Of a stretch of 52,259 nucleotides of DNA, positions 54 to 29,618 are shown piece by piece (position 1 is the stretch's first letter; each line of letters opens with the position of its first letter). Position numbers and translations under genes: made by a program. The notes beneath the pieces are model-generated. The model did not search any database, was not told the origin of the DNA, and was given only the letters and a program-made list of their open reading frames with translations. The DNA comes from a phage: assembly GCA_025325205.1 (NCBI GenBank), contig GCA_025325205.1_4770.1. One strand, given 5' to 3'.

Positions 54-488
54 CTATGCCATGTGGATACCCGCGAGCAAGACTTCATCAGAATAAGGTT
101 GTACACCGTTCTCATGTTTAATAATCGCTTTCACGATCGCAAGCATGAGCTTATCATCGGTCAATGAAATCGGCTGTTCTGCACCAACACCACAAGCCTT
201 AGACACAGATTGAATATAGGCTTCAGTGTTATTTTCATTCGGCGGAGCCCAGCGTGAAATAATTTCCCGTACAGTGTCAATTCCCTTATTACCGACGCGC
301 TTCATCCCTTCGCGGTTGCGGTAGTTTAGTAGAATACGCGCAATGGCGCGAATACCGTATTTTACATCGATAAATTGACAGAAAGAACGGTCAGTTCGTT
401 TATCTTCTGGAACAAGACCTTTCCAGTTATCACCCCAACGAATATTTCCAGGATTGTTATTCCGGATGCCTCGTGGTTGCACAGTCAT
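54..488 (-). CDS. putative endolysin (peptidoglycan hydrolase), family not assignable by eye
   Basis: 144-aa ORF, last gene of a minus-strand block with an overlapped spanin pair directly upstream; call rests on gene context only. Confidence 0.3.
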   Translation of the reverse strand: MTVQPRGIRNNNPGNIRWGDNWKGLVPEDKRTDRSFCQFIDVKYGIRAIARILLNYRNREGMKRVGNKGIDTVREIISRWAPPNENNTEAYIQSVSKACGVGAEQPISLTDDKLMLAIVKAIIKHENGVQPYSDEVLLAGIHMA

Positions 489-579
489 AAAAAAGCTCCA
501 TTCAGTTAAACCGAATAGAGCATAGTTGAATTATCACACGCGCACAATCAATTATGTGCGATTAAGATTGAACGTTTAG

Positions 580-924
580 TTACGCAATCCGGCAAGGACT
601 TTGCAGTTTATCACCTTTCTTTATGCGGATTTCGCATTGCATCATATTGTAGTTCGCACTGCTCGCCGGCAAGACGATACTTTTCAGCCTCTTCTGCCAC
701 TTGTCTGTATTCTGTGACGCTTTCTGAATACAGCTCGGTGAGCACACGGGCGATCTGGGCGGTTGTCTTGCTGTCGGGCTGAGGGCCGGTAGCGTCACCG
801 AGGTACTTACGGATGGTTGCGATTTCGTTGTGCAACCTGTCATTAGTAGCACGATAATCATTAAGATCGGCAACCAAAGACTCAATGCGAGATTGGTACT
901 GGCGTTCGATAACGTCTTTCTCAT
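580..924 (-). CDS. o-spanin (Rz1-like outer-membrane lipoprotein) in alternate frame overlapping the i-spanin gene
   Basis: Internal ATG (reverse complement of cat at 922-924) gives MRKTLSNASTNLALSLWLPILMIIVLLMTG-C: basic n-region, hydrophobic core, lipobox-like MTGC, then Pro/Ser-rich mature part; frame differs from 611-1111 and runs past its stop. Confidence 0.45.
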   Translation of the reverse strand: MRKTLSNASTNLALSLWLPILMIIVLLMTGCTTKSQPSVSTSVTLPALSPTARQPPRSPVCSPSCIQKASQNTDKWQKRLKSIVLPASSANYNMMQCEIRIKKGDKLQSPCRIA

Positions 925-1111
925 ATGCTCTTCGTTTCTCCTCCTCGAAATCAACCGCTTTCTGAGTTTCTTTTTGGTACGACACACCGGCATCGAAACC
1001 CTCCTTTCTAGCTGTTTCTATGGCATTGTCATAAGCCCAGTTGGCTAGAATAACAATTAGGACAAGTGGTATCCAAGGTGCAACCAAACCGATTATTTTT
1101 CTAAGGAACAT
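611..1111 (-). CDS. i-spanin (Rz-like)
   Basis: 166 aa; N-terminal hydrophobic helix (IIGLVAPWIPLVLIVILANWA) followed by charged, coiled-coil-like periplasmic region; contains the o-spanin ORF in another frame. Confidence 0.5.
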   Translation of the reverse strand: MFLRKIIGLVAPWIPLVLIVILANWAYDNAIETARKEGFDAGVSYQKETQKAVDFEEEKRRAYEKDVIERQYQSRIESLVADLNDYRATNDRLHNEIATIRKYLGDATGPQPDSKTTAQIARVLTELYSESVTEYRQVAEEAEKYRLAGEQCELQYDAMRNPHKER

Positions 1112-1320
1112 ACCTTCTCACCAATTCCCATAGACAAGTATTGAATCGCAAGAAGAAATGCTATAGCTTCCTTCGTATCCCCTAAGTCTTTAAAGGCCTT
1201 GAATTTATCTTCAAGTTGCTGTACGTGCTTCTCGAATTGTGGCAAGGCCTCAATCTCAGCGGCAGCTCCGCGCATATACACTCTTGCAGCCGCTAATTGT
1301 GCGTTAGAAGGATCACTCAT
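1093..1320 (-). CDS. hypothetical protein (possible holin/antiholin-type small protein)
   Basis: 75-aa ORF directly upstream of spanins; one hydrophobic stretch (AIAFLLAIQYLSMGIG); ATGA-type overlap with upstream ORF. Confidence 0.3.
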   Translation of the reverse strand: MSDPSNAQLAAARVYMRGAAAEIEALPQFEKHVQQLEDKFKAFKDLGDTKEAIAFLLAIQYLSMGIGEKVCSLEK

Positions 1321-1532
1321 GATGTTCTCCAGATTACACTATTTCGAATTTCATCATTCCAAACGTATTTCCCCTTCTCACCATTTTTATAGGATGGAAC
1401 AGAGAAAACGGAGGAACTTGGATATAGATCTGATGTTGTTAAGCGTATACGCTTACCGTCAAAAGGTCCACCAACACAAAGGAACAGACCAGTCTTAGGT
1501 TTCTTCAAAATGGTTCCTCCTCTGTTGTACAC
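1317..1532 (-). CDS. hypothetical protein
   Basis: 71-aa ORF filling the gap between neighbouring minus-strand genes; no motif recognised. Confidence 0.25.
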   Translation of the reverse strand: MYNRGGTILKKPKTGLFLCVGGPFDGKRIRLTTSDLYPSSSVFSVPSYKNGEKGKYVWNDEIRNSVIWRTS

Positions 1533-1999
1533 TGAGCCATTTTAAGAGTATAAGCTACGTCATAGAAGTCAACACCTTGACCACAGCTATCGCAGTAGTG
1601 GCAGGCCAATCTCACAGCCTCTTCTGCGCCGCGACCTGCCGCCATTGTACCCATCAAGAACTCAAAGGCACTACCCTCGGCAATAAATTCATTAGTGTCT
1701 GGTAGACCTAATTTACCATCCCCATAGATAGGATACACGACAAGTTCCTGCGTCACTGCAATACCATAACGCGAATCCGGAATTAAATCAGAGAAAGGTT
1801 CTTTACGACCACGAACCGTAGTTTTCAGATGTTCTACAATGTCACTTACAGGACGTAGTTTACCAGACATTGCAACAAGGCACAGTCCAATCCCTGGAAT
1901 ATTGACAGTATGAACTTTATCTGTAGTTGTTGCAATATTACCCCATGTAACCTGACGATCTACTGCCAATATACCATTACGATAAGCAATTGCGGTCAT
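1505..1999 (-). CDS. putative HslV/proteasome-like Ntn-hydrolase (threonine peptidase family)
   Basis: Starts MTAIAYRNGILAVDRQVTWGN, resembling the HslV N-terminus (Met-Thr then hydrophobic strand, RNG, GDxQ/TxGN pattern) as I recall it; Gly-rich GSAFEF...AAGRGAEEA segment later. Confidence 0.35.
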   Translation of the reverse strand: MTAIAYRNGILAVDRQVTWGNIATTTDKVHTVNIPGIGLCLVAMSGKLRPVSDIVEHLKTTVRGRKEPFSDLIPDSRYGIAVTQELVVYPIYGDGKLGLPDTNEFIAEGSAFEFLMGTMAAGRGAEEAVRLACHYCDSCGQGVDFYDVAYTLKMAQCTTEEEPF

Positions 2000-2349
2000 A
2001 TTAAACGCCCATATATGTGATAAATTTTATAAGCAGTGGAAAGACCAATATTAAATTCTTTCGCTGCAACCTGAAATCTATTCTCTTTACCAGTGTAATT
2101 TCTAAGAAATTGATAAATTTCCTCTTTATCCAAGTGCCTGTTTCGCACAAGTGTAGTGGACCCAAGCCGGCGCATTTCGAGCGTAGCCGCGAATCTTCGC
2201 TTGATCTGAGCTACTGTACCAACGTACCAATACTTTGCCCCATTTTGCCCAATAGCCGCGTGGACGCATCGCGGCGTACCTGTTTTAGCGAACTTGCGCT
2301 TTGCAAATTCACACGCGAGTTCCGCATTGTCAAAACGTTGCAAGCCCAT
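1996..2349 (-). CDS. hypothetical protein (weak GIY-YIG-like signature plus C-terminal helix-turn-helix-like segment)
   Basis: 117 aa; AKYWYVGTVAQIKRR resembles the YIG..R half of GIY-YIG motifs; assignment uncertain. Confidence 0.3.
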   Translation of the reverse strand: MGLQRFDNAELACEFAKRKFAKTGTPRCVHAAIGQNGAKYWYVGTVAQIKRRFAATLEMRRLGSTTLVRNRHLDKEEIYQFLRNYTGKENRFQVAAKEFNIGLSTAYKIYHIYGRLI

Positions 2350-2352
2350 AAA

Positions 2353-2793
2353 TCACCCCGGCAATATAATTTCGTAATCAATCAGGAAAGACCGCAGAGG
2401 ATACGCCAGATCGTTACCCTCTGCAACGTGGTCATAGGAATAGTATTGTTTCCCTTGCAGACCTTTACACGGGTCGTATACCTTAACATCACCGAAGCGA
2501 GCGTCAATAATGATCTGATGGAAAAGTCCAGGTAACTGCAAAGAGGGTACAGTCGCAAGATACAAGCGCCCAGGTCGAATTTGGTGCATACCGGCAGTGA
2601 TATGCGGCTGTGCAAAGACACCGTGCTTATACAGATAGTTCGACACGTCAGTAAAACCATGAATATAATCATTTGTGAACTCGTCATATACCTGCTCAGG
2701 GTCTTTGTCAAGAAGCATAGCAAGGCAGGTAGGGATGCAAGCCATTATACTTTTCTGAGTTTTATGCTTGATTGGATCGTTGATAGTAATCAT
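2353..2793 (-). CDS. putative papain-fold cysteine peptidase (C39-like)
   Basis: 146 aa; N-terminal ACIPTCLAMLL resembles the C39 nucleophile motif (DCGxACLxMI); downstream His residues (YIHGF, YDHVAEG). Confidence 0.35.
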   Translation of the reverse strand: MITINDPIKHKTQKSIMACIPTCLAMLLDKDPEQVYDEFTNDYIHGFTDVSNYLYKHGVFAQPHITAGMHQIRPGRLYLATVPSLQLPGLFHQIIIDARFGDVKVYDPCKGLQGKQYYSYDHVAEGNDLAYPLRSFLIDYEIILPG

Positions 2794-3131
2794 TAGAACA
2801 CTTCCTTAAACAAATCAAATTTAACATGCTCGTAGATTTTATTCAGCTGAGTTAGCTTGCGAATAAATTCTTTACTGGTATTCTCGTCAATTGCACAGGT
2901 ATCCGTCTGGATCTTCCATGTATCAGAACGCAAACGTAGCAAGAATGAACCGTTCGGATAAACCGTCTTCGCTTCTGGCATATAGTGCAGAATGCAGGAT
3001 ATTGTTCCTTCAGGTGGTATAAGAACAATATAAGTATCATTCACGTCGCTGTGACTAATAATCCAACCGCTCTGTAGTAAAGTATCGCGGAGCTGGCAAT
3101 ACATTTTCGGAATAACGATATCTTTGGCCAT
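2793..3131 (-). CDS. hypothetical protein
   Basis: 112-aa ORF, start/stop overlap with neighbours (operon-like packing). Confidence 0.35.
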   Translation of the reverse strand: MAKDIVIPKMYCQLRDTLLQSGWIISHSDVNDTYIVLIPPEGTISCILHYMPEAKTVYPNGSFLLRLRSDTWKIQTDTCAIDENTSKEFIRKLTQLNKIYEHVKFDLFKEVF

Positions 3132-3496
3132 TATTGCACTTCCACAATTAACAATTCACCATGACGTTCACGAGCGAGATTATATAAATCTTGTTTCTGC
3201 TCAATACTTAATTCGCAGTCAAGAATGGCAATATCACAATGGAAGCCACTCGTACGAATAACAGTGTCTTCATACGAGTCTCTGCGATGAGCAACCAAAC
3301 GAAGGTGGAAACGATCAAACTGTACCACAGATGACTCGCGCGACAGTTGTACACACCGAACGAACTCAGGATCTTCGCGCAACACTTCTTCGAGCTTCCT
3401 GCGATATTCGTTAGCAGGACATAAAACAAAAGCTACGCGATCGTCTTTCAGCTGTGGTCGTAAGATAGACCAGGCTTTAACTATATTCTCGTTCAT
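3131..3496 (-). CDS. hypothetical protein
   Basis: 121-aa ORF, first gene of the minus-strand block, upstream of a long noncoding region. Confidence 0.4.
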   Translation of the reverse strand: MNENIVKAWSILRPQLKDDRVAFVLCPANEYRRKLEEVLREDPEFVRCVQLSRESSVVQFDRFHLRLVAHRRDSYEDTVIRTSGFHCDIAILDCELSIEQKQDLYNLARERHGELLIVEVQ

Positions 3497-3997: not shown

Positions 3998-4066
3998 GCT
4001 ACCTGGTATTTCCTGCGCGTGCTGTTACCTGGTATTTTCAGCACACTCGCGCTACCTGGTATTTCC
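3998..4066. repeat. three direct repeats of G(C/T)TACCTGGTATTT(C/T)C with 26-27 bp period
   Basis: Copies at 3998-4013, 4024-4039, 4051-4066 read directly from sequence; lies in the divergent intergenic region between minus-strand and plus-strand gene blocks. Confidence 0.8.
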
Positions 4067-4150
4067 GGCACACCGTCTACCGTATAGTCCCGGATGTTAT
4101 TATTATTATGAAACACAACTAAAAAAGTTCTAAAATAATGCAGATAATAG

Positions 4151-4179
4151 TTGCATCTGATACCCTGTTGTCATACTAT
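4151..4179 (+). promoter_or_regulatory. candidate sigma70 promoter (TTGCAT-N17-TACTAT)
   Basis: -35 TTGCAT 4151-4156, 17-nt spacer, -10 TACTAT 4174-4179, about 75 nt upstream of the first plus-strand early gene with AAGGGAG RBS. Confidence 0.4.
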
Positions 4180-4254
4180 AACTGCGTAGGGTAAAGGGGG
4201 TTTTAAAGCGGGACACGGGTTCCGCGCCCGCCTCACCCGAAGGGAGATTGCATT

Positions 4255-4560
4255 ATGTCCATTATCTACTTACCGCGTTCTATGTCCCAGTCACAGATCA
4301 CCAAACGTATTATCGGCAAGCGCCTGCACCAACTGGGCCTTACTGCGGAAAAGGTTGACGGGGATTGGGGTTTCGACGAGTATCTGGTAATGCTCCCGGG
4401 CAACGAAAAGTATTCCAGCACCGCGTTATATATTCGCATTAACGAGGACGGCACTGTCAGCTCTTATAGCGTAATGTACGGTCGACCAGTATGCCAAGCG
4501 AATAGCCTTTGGTCTGTGTTCTGCTTTATTACAATGATAGCTAAAGCTATCCAACAATAA
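4255..4560 (+). CDS. hypothetical early protein (paralog family with 6177-6434)
   Basis: 101 aa; N-terminal SQSQITKRIIGKR shared with ORF 6177-6434 (SMITRRIIGKR); good RBS. Confidence 0.45.
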   Translation: MSIIYLPRSMSQSQITKRIIGKRLHQLGLTAEKVDGDWGFDEYLVMLPGNEKYSSTALYIRINEDGTVSSYSVMYGRPVCQANSLWSVFCFITMIAKAIQQ

Positions 4561-4636
4561 TAGCGTGCTAATGGTTGCCCATTGTTACAGTGGGCTCCCA
4601 CTAGCAATCCGCTAGAACAACATGGAGATATTCACA

Positions 4637-5116
4637 ATGGTTACTATCACCCGCGTAGCAAAAGACGCTCGCTTCTTTGCCACTATGTCTAACGCTCGCC
4701 GTGCCTTAAAAAAGGTTCTGGATGTGGACACTGCGACAGCTAACAGCTTTATTCACCAGGAACCGCACGAGGACGGTGGTCGCTACTGGTACAGCGAAAG
4801 CGCGGTTAATAAGGCAGCTAGCGATCTGGTTGAAGCTGATAAAGCGACTGTCGTGGAAGTGACCACACAACCAGCTCCAACCGATCCCGCTAAAAGCAAA
4901 ACACGCAGCGAAACGCGCAACGGGGTCCGCCGCCCAATTAAAGGTAAATGCGCAGACGTTTGGAACGCTCTGGATAATATGTTGCCTAATGGTGTGCCAA
5001 CTATTGGTAACGTCCGTGACCTTGCGAAAGCTAATGGTTGGAATATTAATAATGCAACGATTGAATTCTACGCATGGCGTAAATTCCACGGGCTCAATAA
5101 TAAAGGGGGCAACTAA
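4637..5116 (+). CDS. hypothetical protein
   Basis: ORF 4622-5116; start chosen at ATG 4637 preceded by GGAG (4624-4627); no motif recognised. Confidence 0.4.
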   Translation: MVTITRVAKDARFFATMSNARRALKKVLDVDTATANSFIHQEPHEDGGRYWYSESAVNKAASDLVEADKATVVEVTTQPAPTDPAKSKTRSETRNGVRRPIKGKCADVWNALDNMLPNGVPTIGNVRDLAKANGWNINNATIEFYAWRKFHGLNNKGGN

Positions 5117-5118
5117 TT

Positions 5119-5193
5119 ATGTTCTACTTATTAGCTTTCTTGGTGTTCGGTGCTCCAATAGTTGCGGGCCTTTATTATACGGAGGGCAAATAA
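5119..5193 (+). CDS. candidate 24-aa hydrophobic micro-protein (MFYLLAFLVFGAPIVAGLYYTEGK)
   Basis: ATG 5119 with GGGGG upstream; single predicted TM-like segment; below the ORF-track length cutoff; its 3' end carries the RBS of the next gene. Confidence 0.2.
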   Translation: MFYLLAFLVFGAPIVAGLYYTEGK

Positions 5194-5194
5194 T

Positions 5195-5380
5195 ATGGAA
5201 ACTATAGTTCTATACTGCTGGGTTGACCTGGACGAACACGAATATTGCGTGAATATTAACAACGGACCAGTCCCGGACGCAACTTTCGCATCCTATGACG
5301 AAATGGATGCGTATGTAAAAGGTTTCCGCGAGTGCGCTCGCATTGCAAATATTAACGTGACTGTAATTTTACCGGAATGA
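5195..5380 (+). CDS. hypothetical protein
   Basis: ORF 5162-5380, start chosen at ATG 5195 following GGAGGG RBS. Confidence 0.35.
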   Translation: METIVLYCWVDLDEHEYCVNINNGPVPDATFASYDEMDAYVKGFRECARIANINVTVILPE

Positions 5381-5652
5381 TTATCATGCGTAAACCTAAC
5401 CAAAATTCTTTCGTTGAAATGGCTCGTGTTGTTCTCAACCGTCAGTCCTTCTACCTGTACCACCGTCACGAGTTTGATCTGTGGACTGAAGAGGAAACGT
5501 GCTGCCAGTACGAGATCCATACCCGGAATGGTGTAATATTCACTTCCAGTAATTATCCGGAAGTTAAAGAATACTGGGACAAGCTGATCGCTGAAGCGTA
5601 TGTTGAATTCCAGAAGCAAACTATTTACCCAATGGGCCTTCGCGCTGAGTGA
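5377..5652 (+). CDS. hypothetical protein
   Basis: 91-aa ORF; ATGA start/stop overlap with upstream gene. Confidence 0.4.
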   Translation: MIIMRKPNQNSFVEMARVVLNRQSFYLYHRHEFDLWTEEETCCQYEIHTRNGVIFTSSNYPEVKEYWDKLIAEAYVEFQKQTIYPMGLRAE

Positions 5653-5687
5653 TTATTAACGGCAACATAATTTAAGGAGTGACTATC

Positions 5688-5807
5688 ATGGCTCAAGCTA
5701 TTATCACAAAATTCGTCAACCCGACAGCCGCTCGCGCTCCGCGCGTAAAAGCAACAGGCTGGAACGGTTCTGTAACTATCACATGGCGGGACGATCTGGG
5801 CGTTTAA
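5688..5807 (+). CDS. small ORF (39 aa) terminated by TAA that is followed in frame by a further 41 open codons
   Basis: AAGGAG RBS 5674-5679, ATG 5688; TAA at 5805-5807; downstream in-frame segment 5808-5930 has no ATG/GTG/TTG start. Confidence 0.3.
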   Translation: MAQAIITKFVNPTAARAPRVKATGWNGSVTITWRDDLGV

Positions 5808-5943
5808 GGCAACCACCGCTCCGCAGCGGAGGAGCTGATCAATAAGTTTAATGCTAAAGCGGGCGTTGAATTTGAGATCCTTGCTGGTGGTGAGCTCCCG
5901 GATCAAAGTGGTTACGCGTTTATTGTTCAATAAGGGGATAATT

Positions 5944-6108
5944 ATGGAACGCAACTATTTCCAGGTTATTTATCGCGGTCGTTGCTATCACATCCGCAAC
6001 AAGTTTCGCAACCTGTCCCGCGATCAACTTGAATACGCTATTAATCTGGTGAGTGATGGTCACTTCGCTACACTATCAGAAGCGTTAGAATATGTGTCCG
6101 CTGAGTGA
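5944..6108 (+). CDS. hypothetical protein
   Basis: ORF 5851-6108; start chosen at ATG 5944 after AAGGGG RBS. Confidence 0.35.
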   Translation: MERNYFQVIYRGRCYHIRNKFRNLSRDQLEYAINLVSDGHFATLSEALEYVSAE

Positions 6109-6176
6109 CATATATATTGCCCATAGTAACAGTGGGCAATAATATGCACTTCGCATAGTTAACTGAGGAAACTATT

Positions 6177-6434
6177 ATGTCTACAACATTAAACCAGTCA
6201 ATGATCACCCGTCGCATTATCGGCAAACGTATAGCTAATCTTGCGACTATCACCGCAGAGCTGGAAACTTTCGGTAATAACGCGCGCAAATATCGCGTCC
6301 GTTGCAATGGTCTTAACGTTTATTTAACAGTGTTCGACGACGGTAAAGTTCACGCGGAACTGCATACTATGGGCCGCCTGGTTGCAACCGCGTCCACGCT
6401 GGTGGGCTTCATCAACCTGTTAAAAAACTGCTAA
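6177..6434 (+). CDS. hypothetical early protein (paralog of 4255-4560)
   Basis: 85 aa; shares N-terminal ITRRIIGKR motif and EDG/DDGKV segment with ORF 4255-4560. Confidence 0.45.
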   Translation: MSTTLNQSMITRRIIGKRIANLATITAELETFGNNARKYRVRCNGLNVYLTVFDDGKVHAELHTMGRLVATASTLVGFINLLKNC

Positions 6435-6463
6435 CTTTTAAAATTGTAACGGAGATAAATAAT

Positions 6464-6712
6464 ATGAACGCTATCCATGTAAAAGCACTAGCACCGACTC
6501 AATCCAAAGGTATGCGCTTCAAAGCAGTCGGCCTCGGTATGTGTGCAGTAACTGCAAACGACTACAACCTCAACAGTGAAGCGAACGCCGCTGCCGCTGC
6601 CCAGGAGTTACTAGATAACTACAACATGCAGAACCAGTCGCTTCAACTTAAAATACTTGGAGTTGGTACGCTTCCAGATAATACCTGGGCGGTACTATTA
6701 ACTTGTAAATAA
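6464..6712 (+). CDS. hypothetical protein
   Basis: 82-aa ORF with RBS, followed by a terminator. Confidence 0.4.
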   Translation: MNAIHVKALAPTQSKGMRFKAVGLGMCAVTANDYNLNSEANAAAAAQELLDNYNMQNQSLQLKILGVGTLPDNTWAVLLTCK

Positions 6713-6735
6713 CTTCTAACTGCATTATACAATCC

Positions 6736-6772
6736 GCGCCCTGTTGAAGTCCAACGGGGCGCTTTCGTTTTT
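6736..6772 (+). terminator. rho-independent terminator
   Basis: GCGCCC (6736-6741) / GGGCGC (6757-6762) stem with TTTCGTTTTT tail, directly after the early gene block. Confidence 0.6.
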
Positions 6773-6904
6773 GTACCCGCACCACTTCCCGCGTTACCCT
6801 GCTGACCACATGTTACTCACCCATTCCTCCACCATTCGCGCTCTAAGAACCTAACTCCTTCCTCCATACATTACCATTGACTCCAATTTAATCGCCTTAT
6901 ACGC

Positions 6905-7062
6905 CCTTACAGCGATCCACTCCCTGCTTCCCTGTACGCGATTTTGGGGCATTTTCGCCCCTCACTGCCACCCTTACACTGATCCAACCGCTTTATCGCG
7001 CTACGTGCCCCGTTTTCGCGGCTATTTTCGCTTTATGGGCGACCCGCTACACCGATCCCAGC
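6905..7062. repeat. three spaced copies of a GATC-containing motif ACA(G/C)(C/T)GATCC plus TTTTCGC repeats in a noncoding region
   Basis: GATC at 6914-6917, 6981-6984, 7054-7057 each inside the conserved 10-13 nt motif; no ORF with RBS in this region. Confidence 0.6.
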
Positions 7063-7516
7063 CACCCAACCTCACCGAAAGCCACCTTTCACCGAAAAAT
7101 CCGACATTTATACCATAAAATAGAATCGTTTTCGGGCTACAAAAATTCAAACTCAAAAATCCGATTCACTTCGAGAGTCACTTCAACAAAAATCGCTTGC
7201 AATCCAGTTTTCTTTTGTGTTAGACCGCGTGCCCGCATTATGCGCGTGCGCGAGCTTGTGAGCGCCTCGTTGTTGCGCAACAAATATTTCTTATATTGTT
7301 CGTATATTTTCGCTTAATATACGAAATGAAAGGAGGTAAGTGCATGAAAAATAAGGTAAAAATGTGTATGTGTGTGTATTTATATAAATTTTATAAAGAT
7401 TTTTTATTTTTGAGTTGTCTACTGACGACCCCCACGAGACCCCTTTATAAATAATATAAGAAATAAATTTCGCAACATTGCCAAATTTCCCCTTTAAAAA
7501 CAAGCATTTCAGTATC

Positions 7517-7587
7517 GTGTTAATTTATTGTTAAAAACCTATAAATTGTTAATTTATATTTAAAGCATGTTAAATTTGTTAAATATA
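7517..7587. repeat. five TGTTAA(T/A)(T/A)T repeats in an AT-rich stretch
   Basis: tgttaatttat, ttgttaaaaac, ttgttaatttat, tgttaaatttg, ttgttaaatat read from sequence. Confidence 0.6.
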
Positions 7588-7616
7588 CCCTTCAGACTGT
7601 TGTAATTTTTTGCAAA

Positions 7617-7683
7617 AGCAAAAACTTTGCATATACAAAACACCGCAAAACATCACAGTTGCAAATAGCAAAAACTTTGCATA
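7617..7683 (+). promoter_or_regulatory. two copies of 17-bp element AGCAAAAACTTTGCATA (inverted-repeat core GCAAA-N3-TTTGC) overlapping candidate -35/-10 hexamers
   Basis: Copies at 7617-7633 and 7667-7683; TTGCAA/TTGCAT hexamers within; lies about 60-130 nt upstream of the first gene of the replication block (7745). Confidence 0.45.
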
Positions 7684-7744
7684 AATTAAAACTTGGCAAC
7701 TGAATTTCAAAATCATTCGATTTATTATTATCAAGGGTGAGGTT

Positions 7745-8365
7745 ATGCGCAATCGTAAAATTGAAATAACACACGCACACGTACAAGAAATGTTCGGTTA
7801 CGACGAAGTCATGTACGCCAAAGCGGTAGCCATATTGGAGCAACATAACGACAGCCTAAGTAATGTGGTCAAAGCGTGGAAGGAGGCTGGCCTCGTGTTG
7901 CGGCCGAATGCGGTCAAGACGCTGGACGATGGGCGGACGTATATGTGCTGGTCGGCTCCGATGCTGGGTATGATGTTCACTATCGACATCTACTTCGGGT
8001 ACTGGTTGTTAGATGTGGATTGTGTGATTCCGCTCGACAAGTATATGCACAGTAAAGGGTTCAACAGTTGCTTTGACGTTTGCCCTGACACGGAAGGCAA
8101 CGGTGTTATGATCCTGGGCTTTAAGTGGGTAGACGATAAGTGTGAAATACGGCCGCTGCGATATCCACGTGGTAAAGCGCGTCGTGCGTATATCGAAGAT
8201 GGTGTTGTTCGCTGGTGCAATGTAACGAAGCGTCGGATGAGCACTGACCACATTGCGTATATCAAAGATGGCCTCGTTAGACTTCAGACGAATAATAGTG
8301 GTAATGTGCAGTTACAGCAAGAATTGCAAGAACTCATTGAATACATTGATCAGTTCGGAGCGTGA
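7745..8365 (+). CDS. hypothetical protein
   Basis: 206-aa ORF with AAGGGTGAGG RBS; no motif recognised. Confidence 0.45.
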   Translation: MRNRKIEITHAHVQEMFGYDEVMYAKAVAILEQHNDSLSNVVKAWKEAGLVLRPNAVKTLDDGRTYMCWSAPMLGMMFTIDIYFGYWLLDVDCVIPLDKYMHSKGFNSCFDVCPDTEGNGVMILGFKWVDDKCEIRPLRYPRGKARRAYIEDGVVRWCNVTKRRMSTDHIAYIKDGLVRLQTNNSGNVQLQQELQELIEYIDQFGA

Positions 8366-12912: not shown

Positions 12913-12950
12913 AAAAAAAATGGGCGCTATATGCGCCCATTATATTATTC
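12911..12950. terminator. bidirectional rho-independent terminator
   Basis: A-run, hairpin TGGGCGC-tatat-GCGCCCA (12921-12939), T-rich flank; sits between convergent genes 10363-12912 (+) and 12945-13175 (-). Confidence 0.55.
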
Positions 12951-13175
12951 ATGCAATTCTAAGAAACCACATACGACATATTCAAACATTTCATCATAAT
13001 CCGGTGTTGAAAAGTCTCCAACGTGATACTCACCTTTCTCAAACGTAACAACAGTTGAAGAGTTCATGTATGTGTACTTAATCTTGTGAGTTCCGTCTAT
13101 GCAGTTGTGTGAGAATTCCTCTGACTTGTTCATTGCATTTCTGATGTTTCTTTTTACAAGATCTTGGTGAGTCAT
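12945..13175 (-). CDS. hypothetical protein (AT-rich, opposite strand to surrounding block)
   Basis: 76-aa ORF with GCGGAGGA RBS on minus strand and its own candidate promoter. Confidence 0.4.
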   Translation of the reverse strand: MTHQDLVKRNIRNAMNKSEEFSHNCIDGTHKIKYTYMNSSTVVTFEKGEYHVGDFSTPDYDEMFEYVVCGFLELHE

Positions 13176-13210
13176 TTTGTGTTCCTCCGCTTATAAACTG
13201 TATAATACAT

Positions 13211-18656: not shown

Positions 18657-18685
18657 TTGCATTCAGGTTAATTAGGTCCTAGTAT
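18657..18685 (+). promoter_or_regulatory. candidate sigma70 promoter (TTGCAT-N17-TAGTAT)
   Basis: -35 TTGCAT 18657-18662, 17-nt spacer, -10 TAGTAT 18680-18685, upstream of ORF 18715. Confidence 0.45.
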
Positions 18686-18714
18686 TGCAACCGTAACCAC
18701 ACAAGGAATAACTT

Positions 18715-19461
18715 ATGCAATTTACAACTACCGCGCAGGCAGTTTTAGACACTGGTGTCAAGATGCTTGTGTATGGTGAATCCGGTATGGGTAAGACCAT
18801 GCTCACAGCAACCCTTCCAAGACCGTTGCTGATTTCTGCAGAGTCCGGGCTTTTGTCTTTAACACCGAATAACATTGCTCGTGTATTTGGTGAAAACAGA
18901 CCAGATATCTGCTACGATATTCCAACCATCACGGTTGAAAATATCCAGGATGTAGAGCAGGCTTATGTTTGGGCGACTAACCCTGCAAACAATCCTGTAG
19001 GTGAAGATGGTTTACCGCGCTTTCAGTCTCTTGCGCTGGATTCACTTACTGAGATTGCTGAAAAGTGCCTTAACAATGCGAAGCGTACTGTGAAAGATCC
19101 GCGTCAGGCTTATGGGGATCTTATTGAGAAGATGCAAACTTTAGTTCGCGCTTTTCGAGATATCCCTGGACTTAACGTGTACATGGCAGCTAAAATGTCC
19201 CGTAACAAGGACGAGTTGACAGGTATTACGTCTTACGGTCCTTCTATGCCTGGTGCAAAATTAGGTCCAGAATTACCATACTTTTTTGACGAAGTGTTCA
19301 AAATTAGTGTTGGTAAAGACCAAAATACTCAAGCAGATTTTCGTTATCTGCTGACCAGACCAGATCTGTCAAATGTATGTAAAGATCGTTCTGGTTCGTT
19401 AGAACAGATGGAATATCCACATCTTGGTGCAATCATTAACAAAATCAAAGGGGTGCAATAA
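18715..19461 (+). CDS. RecA-core ATPase (Sak4-like recombination protein candidate)
   Basis: Walker A VYGESGMGKT, Walker B-like LALDSL; about 250 aa; adjacent SSB-like gene. Confidence 0.5.
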   Translation: MQFTTTAQAVLDTGVKMLVYGESGMGKTMLTATLPRPLLISAESGLLSLTPNNIARVFGENRPDICYDIPTITVENIQDVEQAYVWATNPANNPVGEDGLPRFQSLALDSLTEIAEKCLNNAKRTVKDPRQAYGDLIEKMQTLVRAFRDIPGLNVYMAAKMSRNKDELTGITSYGPSMPGAKLGPELPYFFDEVFKISVGKDQNTQADFRYLLTRPDLSNVCKDRSGSLEQMEYPHLGAIINKIKGVQ

Positions 19462-20384
19462 TGGCCGGTTTAGGAATGCAATTTAACGCTGGACAACACG
19501 CAGAGCGTCAACACAATAGCTTGATGCCCGCTGGTTGGTATGTTGTTCAGATTGTAAACTCTGAAATCAAACCGACTAAAACTCCAGGCGGTGCGCGTCT
19601 GAATCTTCAGTTTAAGATTATGCAGGGTGATTTTGCTGGTCGTGTAATGTTTGGCGGTTACAACGTCAAGAACGCGAACCCTGTCGCTGTACAGATTGCA
19701 ATGGAAGAACTGGCAGAGCTGTCCCGTGCTGTTAAAGTTCCAGTTTGGAACGATACCGAACAACTGCACGGTATTCCGTTCAACCTGAAAGTGAAAGTTC
19801 GTCAGCAACCTGGCTATGAGCCAAACAACGAACCTCAGATTTATCAAGCAATTGATAATATGGAAGGTGTTGTATACGCAACTAAGGCGGACATGGCTAA
19901 CCTGCCTAAATCAACTCCGGCAGCGGCAGCACAGTCTCCAGCATTTGGTGGCGGTGCGTTCGGTGGTACTCAGCAGCCACAGCAGCAGCAACCGCAGCAG
20001 GGTTTCCCTGGTGCATTTGGGCAGCAGCCGCAGCAACAGCAGCAGCAACCTCAGACTCAGGGGTTCCAGCAGCAGCAGCAACAGCAACAACAGCCGCAGC
20101 AGCCGGTACAGCAGCAGCAACCGCAGCAGTCTGGAACAGTTGATTTTAACAGTGCGGCACAATCTCAACCGTGGGCTAATGGTGCGCAGCAGCAGACTCA
20201 GCAGCAACCTAACTGGGCAACTCAGCAGGTACAGCCTGGAGCAGAGCAACCACAAACTCAAGCTCAGAATACTGGTACTGCTAACCATGCAGAACCTGAA
20301 GTCCAGGATGATATCGCTAAAGCAGCTCAGACCAAGACTCCACCGTGGAAACGTTCCACTGAAGGCGATGACGCTGCACAGTAA
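19461..20384 (+). CDS. putative ssDNA-binding protein with Gln/Pro-rich low-complexity linker
   Basis: Globular N-terminal part then QQPQQQQ... tract and acidic C-terminus; position next to Sak4-like ATPase; no OB-fold motif verified. Confidence 0.35.
   Translation: MAGLGMQFNAGQHAERQHNSLMPAGWYVVQIVNSEIKPTKTPGGARLNLQFKIMQGDFAGRVMFGGYNVKNANPVAVQIAMEELAELSRAVKVPVWNDTEQLHGIPFNLKVKVRQQPGYEPNNEPQIYQAIDNMEGVVYATKADMANLPKSTPAAAAQSPAFGGGAFGGTQQPQQQQPQQGFPGAFGQQPQQQQQQPQTQGFQQQQQQQQQPQQPVQQQQPQQSGTVDFNSAAQSQPWANGAQQQTQQQPNWATQQVQPGAEQPQTQAQNTGTANHAEPEVQDDIAKAAQTKTPPWKRSTEGDDAAQ
19971..20130 (+). repeat. CAG/CAA-rich (poly-Gln/Pro) coding microsatellite
   Basis: Runs of cagcagcagcaaccgcagcag read from sequence inside ORF 19461-20384. 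Confidence 0.8.
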
Positions 20385-20403
20385 TTAAAAATCATGTTAT
20401 AAT

Positions 20404-20430
20404 AAAGCTCCTCCGGGAGCTTTATTTTTC
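20404..20430 (+). terminator. rho-independent terminator
   Basis: AAAGCTCC-tccg-GGAGCTTT hairpin followed by ATTTTTC. Confidence 0.6.
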
Positions 20431-23401: not shown

Positions 23402-23408
23402 GGCTTAT

Positions 23409-23648
23409 ATGGCAAAGATGACTTTTAGGAGTAATGACCATTTACCAGAAGAAGGTGAATGGAAGACTTTTAAAGAGTGGGAAGAGTTGGGTTATGGTGT
23501 AATTAAAGGTGAAAGAGCTAAACGGTTTATTCACGGTGTTGCAGTTTTTCACGAAAGTCAAGTAATCAATATTGAAGATGAGTTCGAAAAATATAAACGT
23601 GAAGAACTGCAAGGAATGTATTGTGGACCAGAATGGTGGAAGGATTAA
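23409..23648 (+). CDS. hypothetical protein
   Basis: ORF 23241-23648 trimmed to ATG 23409 after helicase stop. Confidence 0.3.
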   Translation: MAKMTFRSNDHLPEEGEWKTFKEWEELGYGVIKGERAKRFIHGVAVFHESQVINIEDEFEKYKREELQGMYCGPEWWKD

Positions 23649-24383: not shown

Positions 24384-24412
24384 TTGCATAGTTCTTTTAG
24401 AGGGGTTATAGT
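24384..24412 (+). promoter_or_regulatory. strong candidate sigma70 promoter (TTGCAT-N17-TATAGT)
   Basis: -35 TTGCAT 24384-24389, 17-nt spacer, -10 TATAGT 24407-24412; GAGG RBS and ATG 24468 downstream. Confidence 0.55.
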
Positions 24413-24467
24413 GCAACCACTTAGAACGTAGTTCACAACCAATAACCACACTGTGAGGATTTAAATC

Positions 24468-25292
24468 ATGGCTAAAGAGAAAACTCCAGAACAACTGGAA
24501 GCAGAAGAAGCAGCAAAGAAAGCAGCAAAAGAAGCTGAAGCAAAGAAAAAACGTGAAGCTGAAGAAAAAGCAGCACGTGAATTGCAGGCTAAAGTTGACG
24601 CCGCAATGAACGAAGCCACTGCCGGTTACAATGTGATCGAAGGTGCTATGTCCGCTGTTAAAGAACAGTTTGACACTCTGCACGAAGGTTCGTTGCTGGA
24701 CGAAGTTAAAGCAGTTGAAGGCGTAGTTACCGCTCAACTGAAGACCGCTAAAGAAGGTCTGAAAGCTGTTAAAGCAGCAGCACGTAAAGTTAAAGACAAC
24801 GATCAACTGAAAACTGCCGTTGCAGCATCTGAAGATCTGGTTTCCGGTGTTGAAGCCACTCTGAAAGATGTTAAAGGCCGTGTATCCGCTGCCCGCGAAG
24901 CCACTAAAGCCGCTGAAAAAGCGAAACGTGACGCTGAACGCGCTGAGAAGAAACGTCTGCAAGACGAAGAGCGCGCTCGTAAAGCAGCAGAACGCGAAGC
25001 TAAGAAAGAGCCGGAACAGAACGGTATTCGTAAGCCTGGTGTTGGTACGCTGTGCCGTGCTGCATGGGACATTTTTGATGCTGTTACCCTGGAGCTGGGT
25101 CAGACTGCACCGATCAGCTACGTTCTGCCGGTTGCACTGGACAAAGGCCTGAACGAAGCGAACGTCAAAGCGGAATACGCTCGCTGGAAGAAATACATGG
25201 GCATTACTGGTCGCGTATCAGTCCCAGTACCTGCTAATATTGCACAGGCGGCCGCTAACGTAGAAATTCCGTCTCAGAAATCTGCAGAGTAA
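24468..25292 (+). CDS. Lys/Glu/Ala-rich coiled-coil-type protein, unknown function
   Basis: 274 aa, charged repetitive EAKK/AAKE composition; codons look like highly expressed E. coli genes (CGT, CTG, GAA, AAA, GGT, GCT) unlike neighbours. Confidence 0.5.
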   Translation: MAKEKTPEQLEAEEAAKKAAKEAEAKKKREAEEKAARELQAKVDAAMNEATAGYNVIEGAMSAVKEQFDTLHEGSLLDEVKAVEGVVTAQLKTAKEGLKAVKAAARKVKDNDQLKTAVAASEDLVSGVEATLKDVKGRVSAAREATKAAEKAKRDAERAEKKRLQDEERARKAAEREAKKEPEQNGIRKPGVGTLCRAAWDIFDAVTLELGQTAPISYVLPVALDKGLNEANVKAEYARWKKYMGITGRVSVPVPANIAQAAANVEIPSQKSAE

Positions 25293-25316
25293 TCTGTAGA
25301 CACTTCGGAAACTCAG

Positions 25317-25345
25317 AAGGGGCATTTACTGCCCCTTTGTTATCT
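25317..25345 (+). terminator. rho-independent terminator
   Basis: GGGGCA-ttta-CTGCCCC hairpin followed by TTTGTTATCTT. Confidence 0.55.
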
Positions 25346-26966: not shown

Positions 26967-28382
26967 ATGTGCTCTATCTTTGGTGTTATTACTAACGGTC
27001 AACCTGAAAGTCTTATCATTCGTAACGATATCAACGATCTCATTAAAGCTAGTGTCAACCGTGGTCGTGATGGTCTTGGTGTACGCTTTACGCATGGTGA
27101 CCACAGTATGCACCCGCAACGTATCGTCAGCGTCGGTAAAGAAACATCGATGGAACGTCTTGTTAAAGTGGGGCGCATTGCATCTCACGCTGGAGCTATT
27201 GGCAGCTTCACGATGATTGGTAACGCTCGTGCTGAACCGACTACAGAATGGGTCGTTGACAAGAGCGAGTGGGACCAGCAACCATATCACCTCGATGGTT
27301 GGACTATTGTTCATAACGGTACTATTGCGAACGATAAAGACCTTCGCACCTATGCACTACAAACTAAGATCGATAGTGCTGCAATTGTTGAACAGTTAGC
27401 AGAATGCACACTTTCAAATGATGAAACATGTTTAACTGACTTTAACTACCTGTATAGTGTGTTTCACGAAGTTGTTCGTAAACTGAAAGGGAGTTACGCA
27501 ATTCTTGCGACACATGATTCATTCCCTGGATGCGTGTTTGCAGCATGTAACTATCGTCCGATTTGGATTGGCCAGACTAATACTGGTATGTATTTCGCCA
27601 GCCAGGAAGATATGTTACCGACCAGCGCAACTAAGCGGATGTTGAAACCTTACTCATGTAGTGTGGTTACAGCTACAGATGTACAAAATGAAGTTGATCT
27701 TATTCCAAATAAGCAGACTCAACGTGCGTTAGTTGTCGCCAGTGGTGGTATGGACAGTACGGTGGCAGCTCAGATGTGCAAGTCCAATGGTTTAGATGTC
27801 ACTCTCATTAACTTCCAGTATGGTTGTCGTGCAGAAACTAATGAGTTAAAGGCTATTCGTAAGATTGCGGAAGTAATGGAAGTTCCGTTAGTTGAGTTCC
27901 CAATCCCAATTTACGATAAGAAAGACAGCCCGTTATTTGATCAAGACGCTGCAATTGCTGGTGGCGAAGAAGGTGCTGAGTTTGCCCATGAATGGGTTCC
28001 AGCTCGTAACCTTGTAATGCTTTCTGTTGCTACTGCATACGCAGAAGCTAACGGTTTCGACTATATTGTTCTTGGTAACAACTTAGAAGAAGCTGGAGCC
28101 TATCCGGACAACGAGCCTGAGTTTATTAACCGCTTTAATCAGGTGCTACCATTCGCTGTAGGCGACGGTAAGCGCGTTGAAGTGCTCATGCCAGTAGGTA
28201 ACTTAATGAAGCACGAAATTGTCGCTACAGGCCTACGTTTAGGGGCCCCGCTTGAGCACACCTGGAGCTGTTACCGTAACGGGGATTTGCATTGTGGTAC
28301 TTGTGGCCCTTGCATGATGCGTCGGACTGCGTTTAATATTAATAACGCACAAGAAGTTATTAAATACGAAAGCGAGGAATAA
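26967..28382 (+). CDS. queC: glutamine amidotransferase-QueC fusion (7-cyano-7-deazaguanine synthase-like with N-terminal class-II GATase)
   Basis: Begins MCSIFGV (Ntn Cys after Met, asparagine-synthetase-like); central ALVVASGGMDSTVAAQMC PP-loop (SGGxDS); C-terminal WSCYRNGDLHCGTCGPCMMR Zn-Cys cluster typical of QueC. Confidence 0.7.
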   Translation: MCSIFGVITNGQPESLIIRNDINDLIKASVNRGRDGLGVRFTHGDHSMHPQRIVSVGKETSMERLVKVGRIASHAGAIGSFTMIGNARAEPTTEWVVDKSEWDQQPYHLDGWTIVHNGTIANDKDLRTYALQTKIDSAAIVEQLAECTLSNDETCLTDFNYLYSVFHEVVRKLKGSYAILATHDSFPGCVFAACNYRPIWIGQTNTGMYFASQEDMLPTSATKRMLKPYSCSVVTATDVQNEVDLIPNKQTQRALVVASGGMDSTVAAQMCKSNGLDVTLINFQYGCRAETNELKAIRKIAEVMEVPLVEFPIPIYDKKDSPLFDQDAAIAGGEEGAEFAHEWVPARNLVMLSVATAYAEANGFDYIVLGNNLEEAGAYPDNEPEFINRFNQVLPFAVGDGKRVEVLMPVGNLMKHEIVATGLRLGAPLEHTWSCYRNGDLHCGTCGPCMMRRTAFNINNAQEVIKYESEE

Positions 28383-29558: not shown

Positions 29559-29592
29559 CTGATTTGCGAATCATACATTATCTTTAATATAA

Positions 29593-29618
29593 TAAGCGCC
29601 TACGGGCGCTTATTTGTT
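29593..29618 (+). terminator. rho-independent terminator (possibly partial) between folE and dpdA
   Basis: AGCGCC-tacg-GGCGCT hairpin followed by TATTTGTT. Confidence 0.5.

Follow-up and report, generated by a model that had tools for sequence, protein, structure and literature searches.

We analyzed 52,259 nucleotides (nt) of phage DNA (contig GCA_025325205.1_4770.1 of assembly GCA_025325205.1; the whole stretch is here referred to as "the window") and focused on four sites at which the hexamer TTGCAT stands 16-17 nt before a hexamer of the form TAnnnT (n, any nucleotide). These four sites are probably genuine promoters read by the sigma70 RNA polymerase holoenzyme of the host, and we file them as new, unannotated promoters of this familiar type. 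Their number is confirmed to be more than chance would give, each of them stands between genes and is oriented toward its neighbour, and their boxes and spacing are conserved while the spacers have diverged. That polymerase starts at these sites, as well as the timing and strength of such starts, is what we infer from these features. The sites are as follows (N17, 17 intervening nt).

Promoter candidate 1, 4151-4179 (+): -35 TTGCAT (4151-4156), N17, -10 TACTAT (4174-4179); heads the early rightward operon
Promoter candidate 2, 13238-13211 (-): -35 TTGCAT (13238-13233), N16, -10 TATAGT (13216-13211); serves an antisense gene
Promoter candidate 3, 18657-18685 (+): TTGCAT-N17-TAGTAT; internal; serves the pair of a Sak4-like ATPase and a DUF669 protein
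Promoter candidate 4, 24384-24412 (+): TTGCAT-N17-TATAGT; serves the monocistronic gene 24468-25292

Architecture, placement and conservation of the four sites

The sites had been noticed in a first-pass annotation made from the letters alone, and its coordinates proved exact at all four. It had called them near-identical, which holds for the hexamers and the spacing and not for the spacers. These are unrelated, no flanking position is conserved, and the two hexamers with their spacing are all that the four sites have in common; the likeness therefore fits recognition by a sigma factor, not a duplicated element. The -10 boxes match TATAAT at 4-5 of six positions and are all TAnnnT. The formula TA(T/G)(A/T)(G/A)T first given for them covers sites 2-4 and leaves out TACTAT of site 1. 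From the end of the -10 box to the ATG we counted 75, 35, 29 and 55 nt for sites 1-4, each ATG being preceded by a Shine-Dalgarno (SD) sequence; the earlier range of 35-80 nt upstream of an open reading frame (ORF) with a ribosome-binding site takes in all of these except the 29 nt of site 3. The 25 nt upstream of each -35 box are 72-84% A+T (76% at site 1). Site 3 begins 7 nt and site 4 13 nt beyond the preceding stop codon, and neither is preceded by a terminator; they would therefore be internal promoters. The description of the sites as operon starts thus fails for these two of the four.

In the whole window, the pattern was observed five times against 1.6 expected, and one of 100 shuffles reached five; TTGCAT alone is not enriched (55 versus 47 expected). 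Four of the five matches sit in the non-coding 8.5% of the window, while the fifth (23318), with a poor -10 box (TATTCT), falls within the helicase gene. Of the 4096 possible hexamers, TTGCAT ranks highest for placement 16-18 nt ahead of TAnnnT in the 5.1 kb of correctly oriented non-coding DNA upstream of genes, with four sites against 0.15 expected; it reached four in none of 3000 Markov simulations. The gene map behind these statistics is our own ORF-based map, guided by the annotation of phage ChristophMerian, and is approximate.

About 10 kb around the 24384 site are 92-95% identical to the Escherichia and Salmonella phages PD328, SE1, JenP1/P2, JenK1, 9g and ChristophMerian, and we assign the window to Nonagvirus (phage 9g-like, of E. 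coli) in the subfamily Queuovirinae. At site 1, TTGCAT and TAyTAT (y, C or T) are kept at a spacing of 17 in nine Nonagvirus genomes. In genome L024 (JenP1-type), the DNA upstream of this site has been replaced and the spacer is largely different, and TTGCAT-N17-TATTAT is still kept. The intergenic region of site 2 is invariant in nine genomes except for three variable alignment columns. The boxes of site 3 are invariant in ten genomes, with three spacer positions varying, and at site 4 the whole intergenic region is invariant in ten Nonagvirus genomes. The spacer variation at site 3 and the replacement at site 1 are more informative than the general invariance of the boxes.

More distant relatives were drawn from the IMG/VR database, first around the Sak4-like gene and then via alignment of the orthologues of the gene at 24468. 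Of 77 loci, 51 have TTGnnn-N16-18-TAnnnT upstream of the orthologue, at a distance of 28-93 nt from its start codon. The 51 loci comprise 40 distinct sequences on contigs of 40-66% GC; the spacing is 17 in most of them and the spacers have fully diverged. Their -35 boxes are TTGCAA (9), TTGCGT (6), TTGCAT (5), TTGCAC (4), TTGCGC (4) and others, and their -10 boxes include TACATT, TAAACT, TAAAGT and TATAGT. A looser -10 filter yielded more TTGC-type sites among the loci at first without one. At the position of site 3, other genera have the promoter-like sites TTGCGA-17-TATAAT (L014), TTTACA-18-TAATAT (L010) and TTGAGG-18-TACAAT (phage WildeMaa). The pattern at site 4 is a phylogenetic footprint of the classical kind, left by a promoter with two boxes, and this cross-genus footprint is the strongest evidence here for the 24384 site as a functional element.

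Probable reading by host sigma70 and the wider promoter set

Host sigma70, perhaps with a phage factor, had been proposed as the reader of these sites. The architecture, the orientation, the AT-rich upstream DNA, the matched terminators and the conserved boxes and spacing, all of them sequence evidence, support the sigma70 part of this proposal. TTGCAT would be the -35 element, retaining TTG, the three best-conserved positions, and TAnnnT would be the -10 element at the optimal spacing of 16-17 nt, with the AT-rich upstream DNA probably assisting as an UP-like element. A spacer of 17 ± 1 nt is found at every site (17, 16, 17 and 17), together with the TAnnnT form of the -10 box and the oriented non-coding placement. 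Site 1 would start the early rightward operon (4255 to ~6712) and site 2 a short antisense unit, while sites 3 and 4 would be internal promoters boosting, respectively, the pair of recombination genes and one conserved gene; transcription of each unit is predicted to stop at an intrinsic terminator. Nothing points to the phage factor. The same build is found at site 1, ahead of the operon that enters first and should be the first to be transcribed, so the unmodified host holoenzyme would have to manage it, and in the simplest reading this holoenzyme uses all these promoters.

E. coli sigma70 promoters, such as those of the early and middle genes of T5 and T1, are alike in TTGnnn and TAnnnT, in the spacing of 16-17 nt and in the AT-rich upstream DNA. 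They likewise have no conserved positions outside the hexamers and are placed as here, 29-75 nt before an SD-preceded start. The sites differ from them in a -35 box that is spelled identically four times and matches TTGACA at three of six positions; TTGC-type -35 boxes are also frequent in the intergenic DNA of phage T1. T4 early promoters have a GTTTAC-like -35 region, and they are alike in combining a -35 spelling of the lineage's own with host sigma70 and AT-rich upstream DNA, whereas the sequence differs (here TTGCAT/TTGCAN).

In phage 9g, two divergent promoters, Pl and Pr, were predicted in a large non-coding region (Kulikov et al. 2014, PMC4276943), and site 1 lies in the equivalent non-coding region between the arms. 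The passages of that paper on Pl and Pr give no promoter sequences, motif or internal promoters, and sites 2-4 and the shared architecture are undescribed in them. No regulatory features are annotated around site 4 in the 9g RefSeq entry or in the whole region in ChristophMerian.

Several points weigh against reading the four sites as sigma70 promoters. A generic sigma70 scan of the window gave promoter-like matches no more frequently than in shuffled sequences, and consensus matching alone is therefore powerless in this window. The same scan misses all four sites because TTGCAT, although it keeps TTG, falls at 3/6 below the threshold of 4/6 matches to TTGACA. Some hexamer, mostly an AT-rich one, reached four occurrences in ~10% of the simulations. 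Conservation at the level of the genus carries little weight, since the genomes share 92-95% identity overall. The promoters of the relatives were called by regular expression with heuristic start codons, and orthologous sites are not independent samples. Finally, the searched literature yielded no promoter motif, transcription starts or expression data for Nonagvirus or other Queuovirinae.

Besides the four sites, the window contains at least seven further candidates of the same build with related -35 boxes.

6117-6145 (+): TTGCCC-17-TAATAT; 31 nt before the 6177 gene
7659-7687 (+): TTGCAA-17-TAAATT; 57 nt before the 7745 gene
13177-13206 (+): TTGTGT-18-TATAAT; partner of promoter 2 in a divergent pair, facing the 13274 gene
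20374-20403 (+): CTGCAC-18-TGtTATAAT
29564-29593 (+): TTGCGA-18-TATAAT, before dpdA (29628); a hairpin (29594-29611) follows directly
36382-36354 (-): TTGCAC-17-TACAAT; late arm
36231-36204 (-): TTGCGA-16-TATGCT; late arm
52043-52015 (-): TTGCTA-17-(TG)TACACT; late arm, 32 nt before the 51982 gene

No canonical TTGACA-type promoter was found in correctly oriented intergenic DNA of the window, and the TTGC/TTGT set is therefore its only candidate promoter population. TTGCAT had been thought to define one promoter class. This does not agree with the related -35 boxes in the window or with TTGCGT, TTGCAA and TTGCAC at orthologous promoters elsewhere, and since such boxes precede other genes of the window, the late arm included, TTGCAT does not mark a special temporal class. 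It is the genus's commonest spelling of a lineage-wide (T/c)TGCAN/TTGYNN -35 preference (Y, C or T), not a separate class. Taken together, the result is a transcription map, drawn from sequence, for the early and DNA-metabolism arm, consisting of four strong promoter candidates, terminators and the further candidates above. Such a map is useful but ordinary annotation, and helps the engineering of 9g-like phages and the placement of transgenes, which has already been proposed for 9g (PMC5567051).

Some of these candidates have arrangements of their own. The -10 boxes of promoter 2 and of its divergent partner at 13177-13206 are 4 nt apart on opposite strands; the predicted starts therefore overlap, and the two promoters are expected to compete for polymerase. 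At 20395-20403 (TGtTATAAT) and 29588-29593 (TATAAT), a good -10 box overlaps or immediately precedes a terminator-like hairpin at its 5' arm. At these terminator-promoter junctions (20374-20426 and 29564-29611), transcripts from upstream would terminate, while locally started ones, which lack the 5' arm, would read on. A further internal promoter could be TTGCAT-18-TAATAT at 28310-28339, within the 3' end of the Gat-QueC gene and 45 nt before the 28384 gene; it is also kept in L010, a relative of 73% identity, a conservation that is uninformative because the DNA is coding.

Possible constraint by modified guanines, a possible phage factor and rejected promoter types

In the siphoviruses of Nonagvirus, part of the guanines are replaced by archaeosine (dG+), a 7-deazaguanine derivative, and region 4.2 of sigma70 reads G-33 in the major groove, a contact known from genetic work of the late 1980s. 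With archaeosine installed by DpdA at GA, TTGACA would show sigma70 a modified G at -33, while TTGCAT would be a modification-proof -35 element whose G is left unmodified. A modified G at a position that sigma70 reads could therefore explain the missing TTGA boxes. In this refinement of the sigma70 reading, a refinement that we consider unlikely, selection against dG+ at the G of GA would keep A out of the fourth -35 position and leave C or T there.

Where TTGN has a -10 partner, its fourth base is distributed as C 11, T 9, A 0 and G 0 in the oriented upstream DNA of the window, and as A 42, T 39, C 35 and G 13 genome-wide. The counts are C 18, T 10, A 1 and G 1 in the distant relatives, and C 33, T 4, G 3 and A 0 in the 40 unique orthologues of site 4. 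This strong bias to C/T favours the refinement, and so do the many TTGA matches in unmodified control phages (5/12 in T1 and 2/10 in HK578). However, TTGC boxes are common in unmodified T1 too (6/12), the local intergenic background of TTGN has 15% A, which makes 0 of ~18 only marginal, and the lists of candidate promoters come from pattern matching.

The placement of the modification itself was assessed by re-analysis of a published table of 212 restriction enzymes on 9g DNA (PMC5567051, Suppl. Table 1). Enzymes with a fixed GA in their site are blocked in 76 of 77 cases and those with GGC in 16 of 16, whereas 53 of the 110 other G-containing sites are cut (Fisher p = 2e-14). Two-G sites are cut in one of 21 cases when they have GA and in 18 of 21 when they do not (p = 1e-7), and cleavage of 9g DNA by HpyCH4V (TGCA) is complete. 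Of all G in the window, 26.7% stand in GA, which matches the 25-27% of G published as dG+ for 9g. The modification motif of 9g has been called unknown in later literature; CAjan DNA is modified at GA and GGC (PMC7544227), and the 9g restriction data fit the GA (plus GGC) rule measured there. Two enzymes are contrary to this rule, as NsiI (ATGCAT) fails on 9g DNA and TaqI (TCGA) cuts.

Another objection concerns the genus Seuratvirus, the only one with measured GA modification. Its member WildeMaa has plausible TTGA-type promoters, for example the TTGAGG-18-TACAAT at the site 3 orthologue, TTGACT-17-TACTAT, and TTGACA before the capsid gene. GA avoidance as a general rule of the Queuovirinae is thus weakened by Seuratvirus and by the T1 controls. 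We are accordingly doubtful that the never-A pattern marks a constraint beyond ordinary sigma70 recognition in a wide clade of deazaguanine-modifying phages. If it did, hypermodification of DNA would be shaping the promoter grammar of a virus, which would link hypermodification to promoter evolution, and these phages would allow the reading of 7-deazaguanine-substituted DNA by sigma70 to be tested directly. This link is the sole part of the analysis likely to surprise a specialist.

A second alternative, which we regard as improbable, is that TTGCAT (core TGCA) is the site of a phage activator or sigma-appropriating factor, in a middle-type class such as that of T4 MotA/AsiA, host polymerase alone being insufficient. 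Four identical hexamers in ~13 candidates are more uniform than sigma70 promoters usually are, and the fourth -35 base C at the site 4 promoter is kept throughout a very wide clade. Frequently a further TTGCAN-like copy runs into the 3' end of the -10 box (for example, site 3 has TAGTATTGCAACC, site 4 has TATAGTGCAACC, and relatives have TACATTGCAATCCC), and two more TTGCAT copies lie in 27-nt repeats without a -10 partner. On the other hand, no position beyond the two hexamers is common to the four sites, the early operon behind site 1 has no alternative canonical class for its genes, TTGCAA, TTGCAC and TTGCGT boxes with good -10 boxes also occur in unmodified T1, and no candidate factor was identified. 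T4 middle promoters, with a MotA box and AsiA-remodelled polymerase, are alike in a recurrent TGC-containing upstream box and a TAnnnT -10 box. However, the MotA box, (a/t)(a/t)TGCTT(t/c)A, lies near -30, 11-13 nt from the -10 box, and replaces the -35 element, whereas TTGCAT keeps TTG and the canonical spacing. No MotA/AsiA-like genes are noted among the annotated features of ChristophMerian.

Four more specific candidates were rejected. First, a MotA-type middle promoter would require another sequence and another distance than TTGCAT at 16-17 nt from the -10 box. Second, TTGCAT resembles the -12 element of a sigma54 promoter, but the GG of a -24 element (TGGCAC), which such a promoter would have 5 nt upstream of the TTGC(A/T), is absent at all four sites. 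Third, a T7-like promoter of a phage polymerase would have a conserved block of ~20 nt, and nothing is conserved here beyond the hexamers; no phage RNA polymerase is present among the 82 overlapping annotated features of ChristophMerian, the ORFs of the window not having been screened individually. Fourth, TGCA as half-site of an operator with a fixed partner does not agree with the inconsistent spacing of the TGCA copies (12, 17, 27 and 28 nt).

That the four sites are a chance resemblance, non-functional and picked by eye from a loose pattern, is very improbable: the looseness, the uninformative generic scan and the simulations in which other hexamers reached four speak for it, but TTGCAT itself never reached four in those simulations, each of the four lies between genes in the correct orientation, and boxes and spacing are kept where spacers are replaced, within the genus and in the 40 distinct orthologous versions.

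Predicted transcription units and neighbouring sequences

Each of the four units closes at a hairpin resembling an intrinsic terminator. The larger blocks of the genome, the units, their genes and these hairpins are listed below.

54-3496: leftward block
758 bp between the leftward and rightward arms: non-coding region
4255-34109: rightward early/DNA-metabolism block, with primase, ligase, Sak4-like ATPase, helicase, queuosine-type genes, DpdA and DNA polymerase
Beyond 34109: tail genes, leftward
4151-6762 (+): unit 1, seven or eight small early genes
4255-4560 (+): first gene after promoter 1, 101 amino acids, phrog_13865; GC-rich conserved leader of ~68 nt
6736-6762 (+): terminator-like hairpin with T-run, closing unit 1
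13238-12919 (-): unit 2, single antisense gene
12945-13175 (-): antisense gene of promoter 2, 76 amino acids, phrog_17131; 36% GC versus 43% in the window
12919-12941 (both strands): bidirectional terminator-like hairpin, closing unit 2 on the - strand and following the primase gene on the + strand
18657-20426 (+): unit 3, Sak4-like ATPase and DUF669 protein
18715-19461 (+): Sak4-like/RecA-like ATPase, promoter 3
19461-20384 (+): DUF669 protein, promoter 3
20401-20426 (+): terminator-like hairpin, closing unit 3; shares part of its 5' arm with the -10 box of the next candidate (20374-20403)
24384-25338 (+): unit 4, single gene of 274 amino acids
24468-25292 (+): 274-amino-acid protein of promoter 4, phrog_11298; Lys/Glu/Ala-rich N-terminal part and conserved C-terminal domain
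25316-25338 (+): terminator-like hairpin, closing unit 4

The idea that the sites serve early or middle units, among them an AT-rich antisense gene, is supported by their position in the early/DNA-metabolism arm and by the low GC content of the gene at 12945-13175. Sequence searches against Pfam, NCBIfam, PHROG and the PDB returned no function for the genes after sites 1, 2 and 4. The spacer of site 2 holds the near-palindrome GCATTCCTAAGGAAATGC, which could be an operator.

The leaders between promoter and gene have some features of their own. The leader of site 1 (4186-4254, ~68 nt and GC-rich, reaching to 4255) is near-invariant in nine genomes, even where the promoter spacer has been replaced. 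A hairpin of -28.5 kcal/mol is predicted in it, which is not significant against shuffled sequences (z = -1.8). The leader of site 4 has a weak small hairpin, GAAC-gta-GTTC, at 24424-24434. In relatives (L046-L107), the corresponding hairpin starts 8-12 nt past the -10 box, its position being kept while the stem sequence differs (CGTTC/GAACG, ACGTC/GACGT, GCCTA/TAGGC and CACGTT/AACGTG). Single-sequence folding of the site 4 leaders gave a mean z-score of -1.1 (n=24), with 13 of 24 below -1. An Rfam scan of the whole window gave no match, and the conserved leaders are therefore not known RNA families. The leaders of sites 3 and 4 also share the octamer AACCACAC just 5' of the Shine-Dalgarno sequence (18695-18702 and 24444-24451). 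Its place is matched in the distant relatives L012 and L013 by …ctAACCACACaaggcg… and …gctAACCACACtaggaga…; with one mismatch allowed, the octamer has 63 matches in the window against 47 expected.

Between the helicase gene and the next gene lies a stretch of ~227-247 nt (23402-23648) that is present in JenP/SE1-type relatives. ChristophMerian and 9g lack it, and in them only 20 nt separate the helicase stop from the start of the next gene. Within the 758-bp non-coding region, three 21-nt direct repeats (TACCTGGTATTTCC core) are found at 4000-4073, 26-27 nt apart and 80-150 nt upstream of the -35 box of site 1. They could be iterons or binding sites of a regulator; a pac site was rejected, as the published pac core of 9g (SRYCRCGGGRCG) is near the terminase gene and has a different sequence.

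The region 6763-7744, between the terminator at 6736-6762 and the 7745 gene, is ~1 kb without a convincing ORF. Its GC content is 26-29% at 7350-7800, the GC skew is strongly negative at 6600-7200, and several short TGTTAATTTAT-type repeats are present. The two 27-nt repeats at 7614-7640 and 7664-7690 each contain TTGCAT with no usable -10 partner. This region is a candidate replication origin or regulatory hub.

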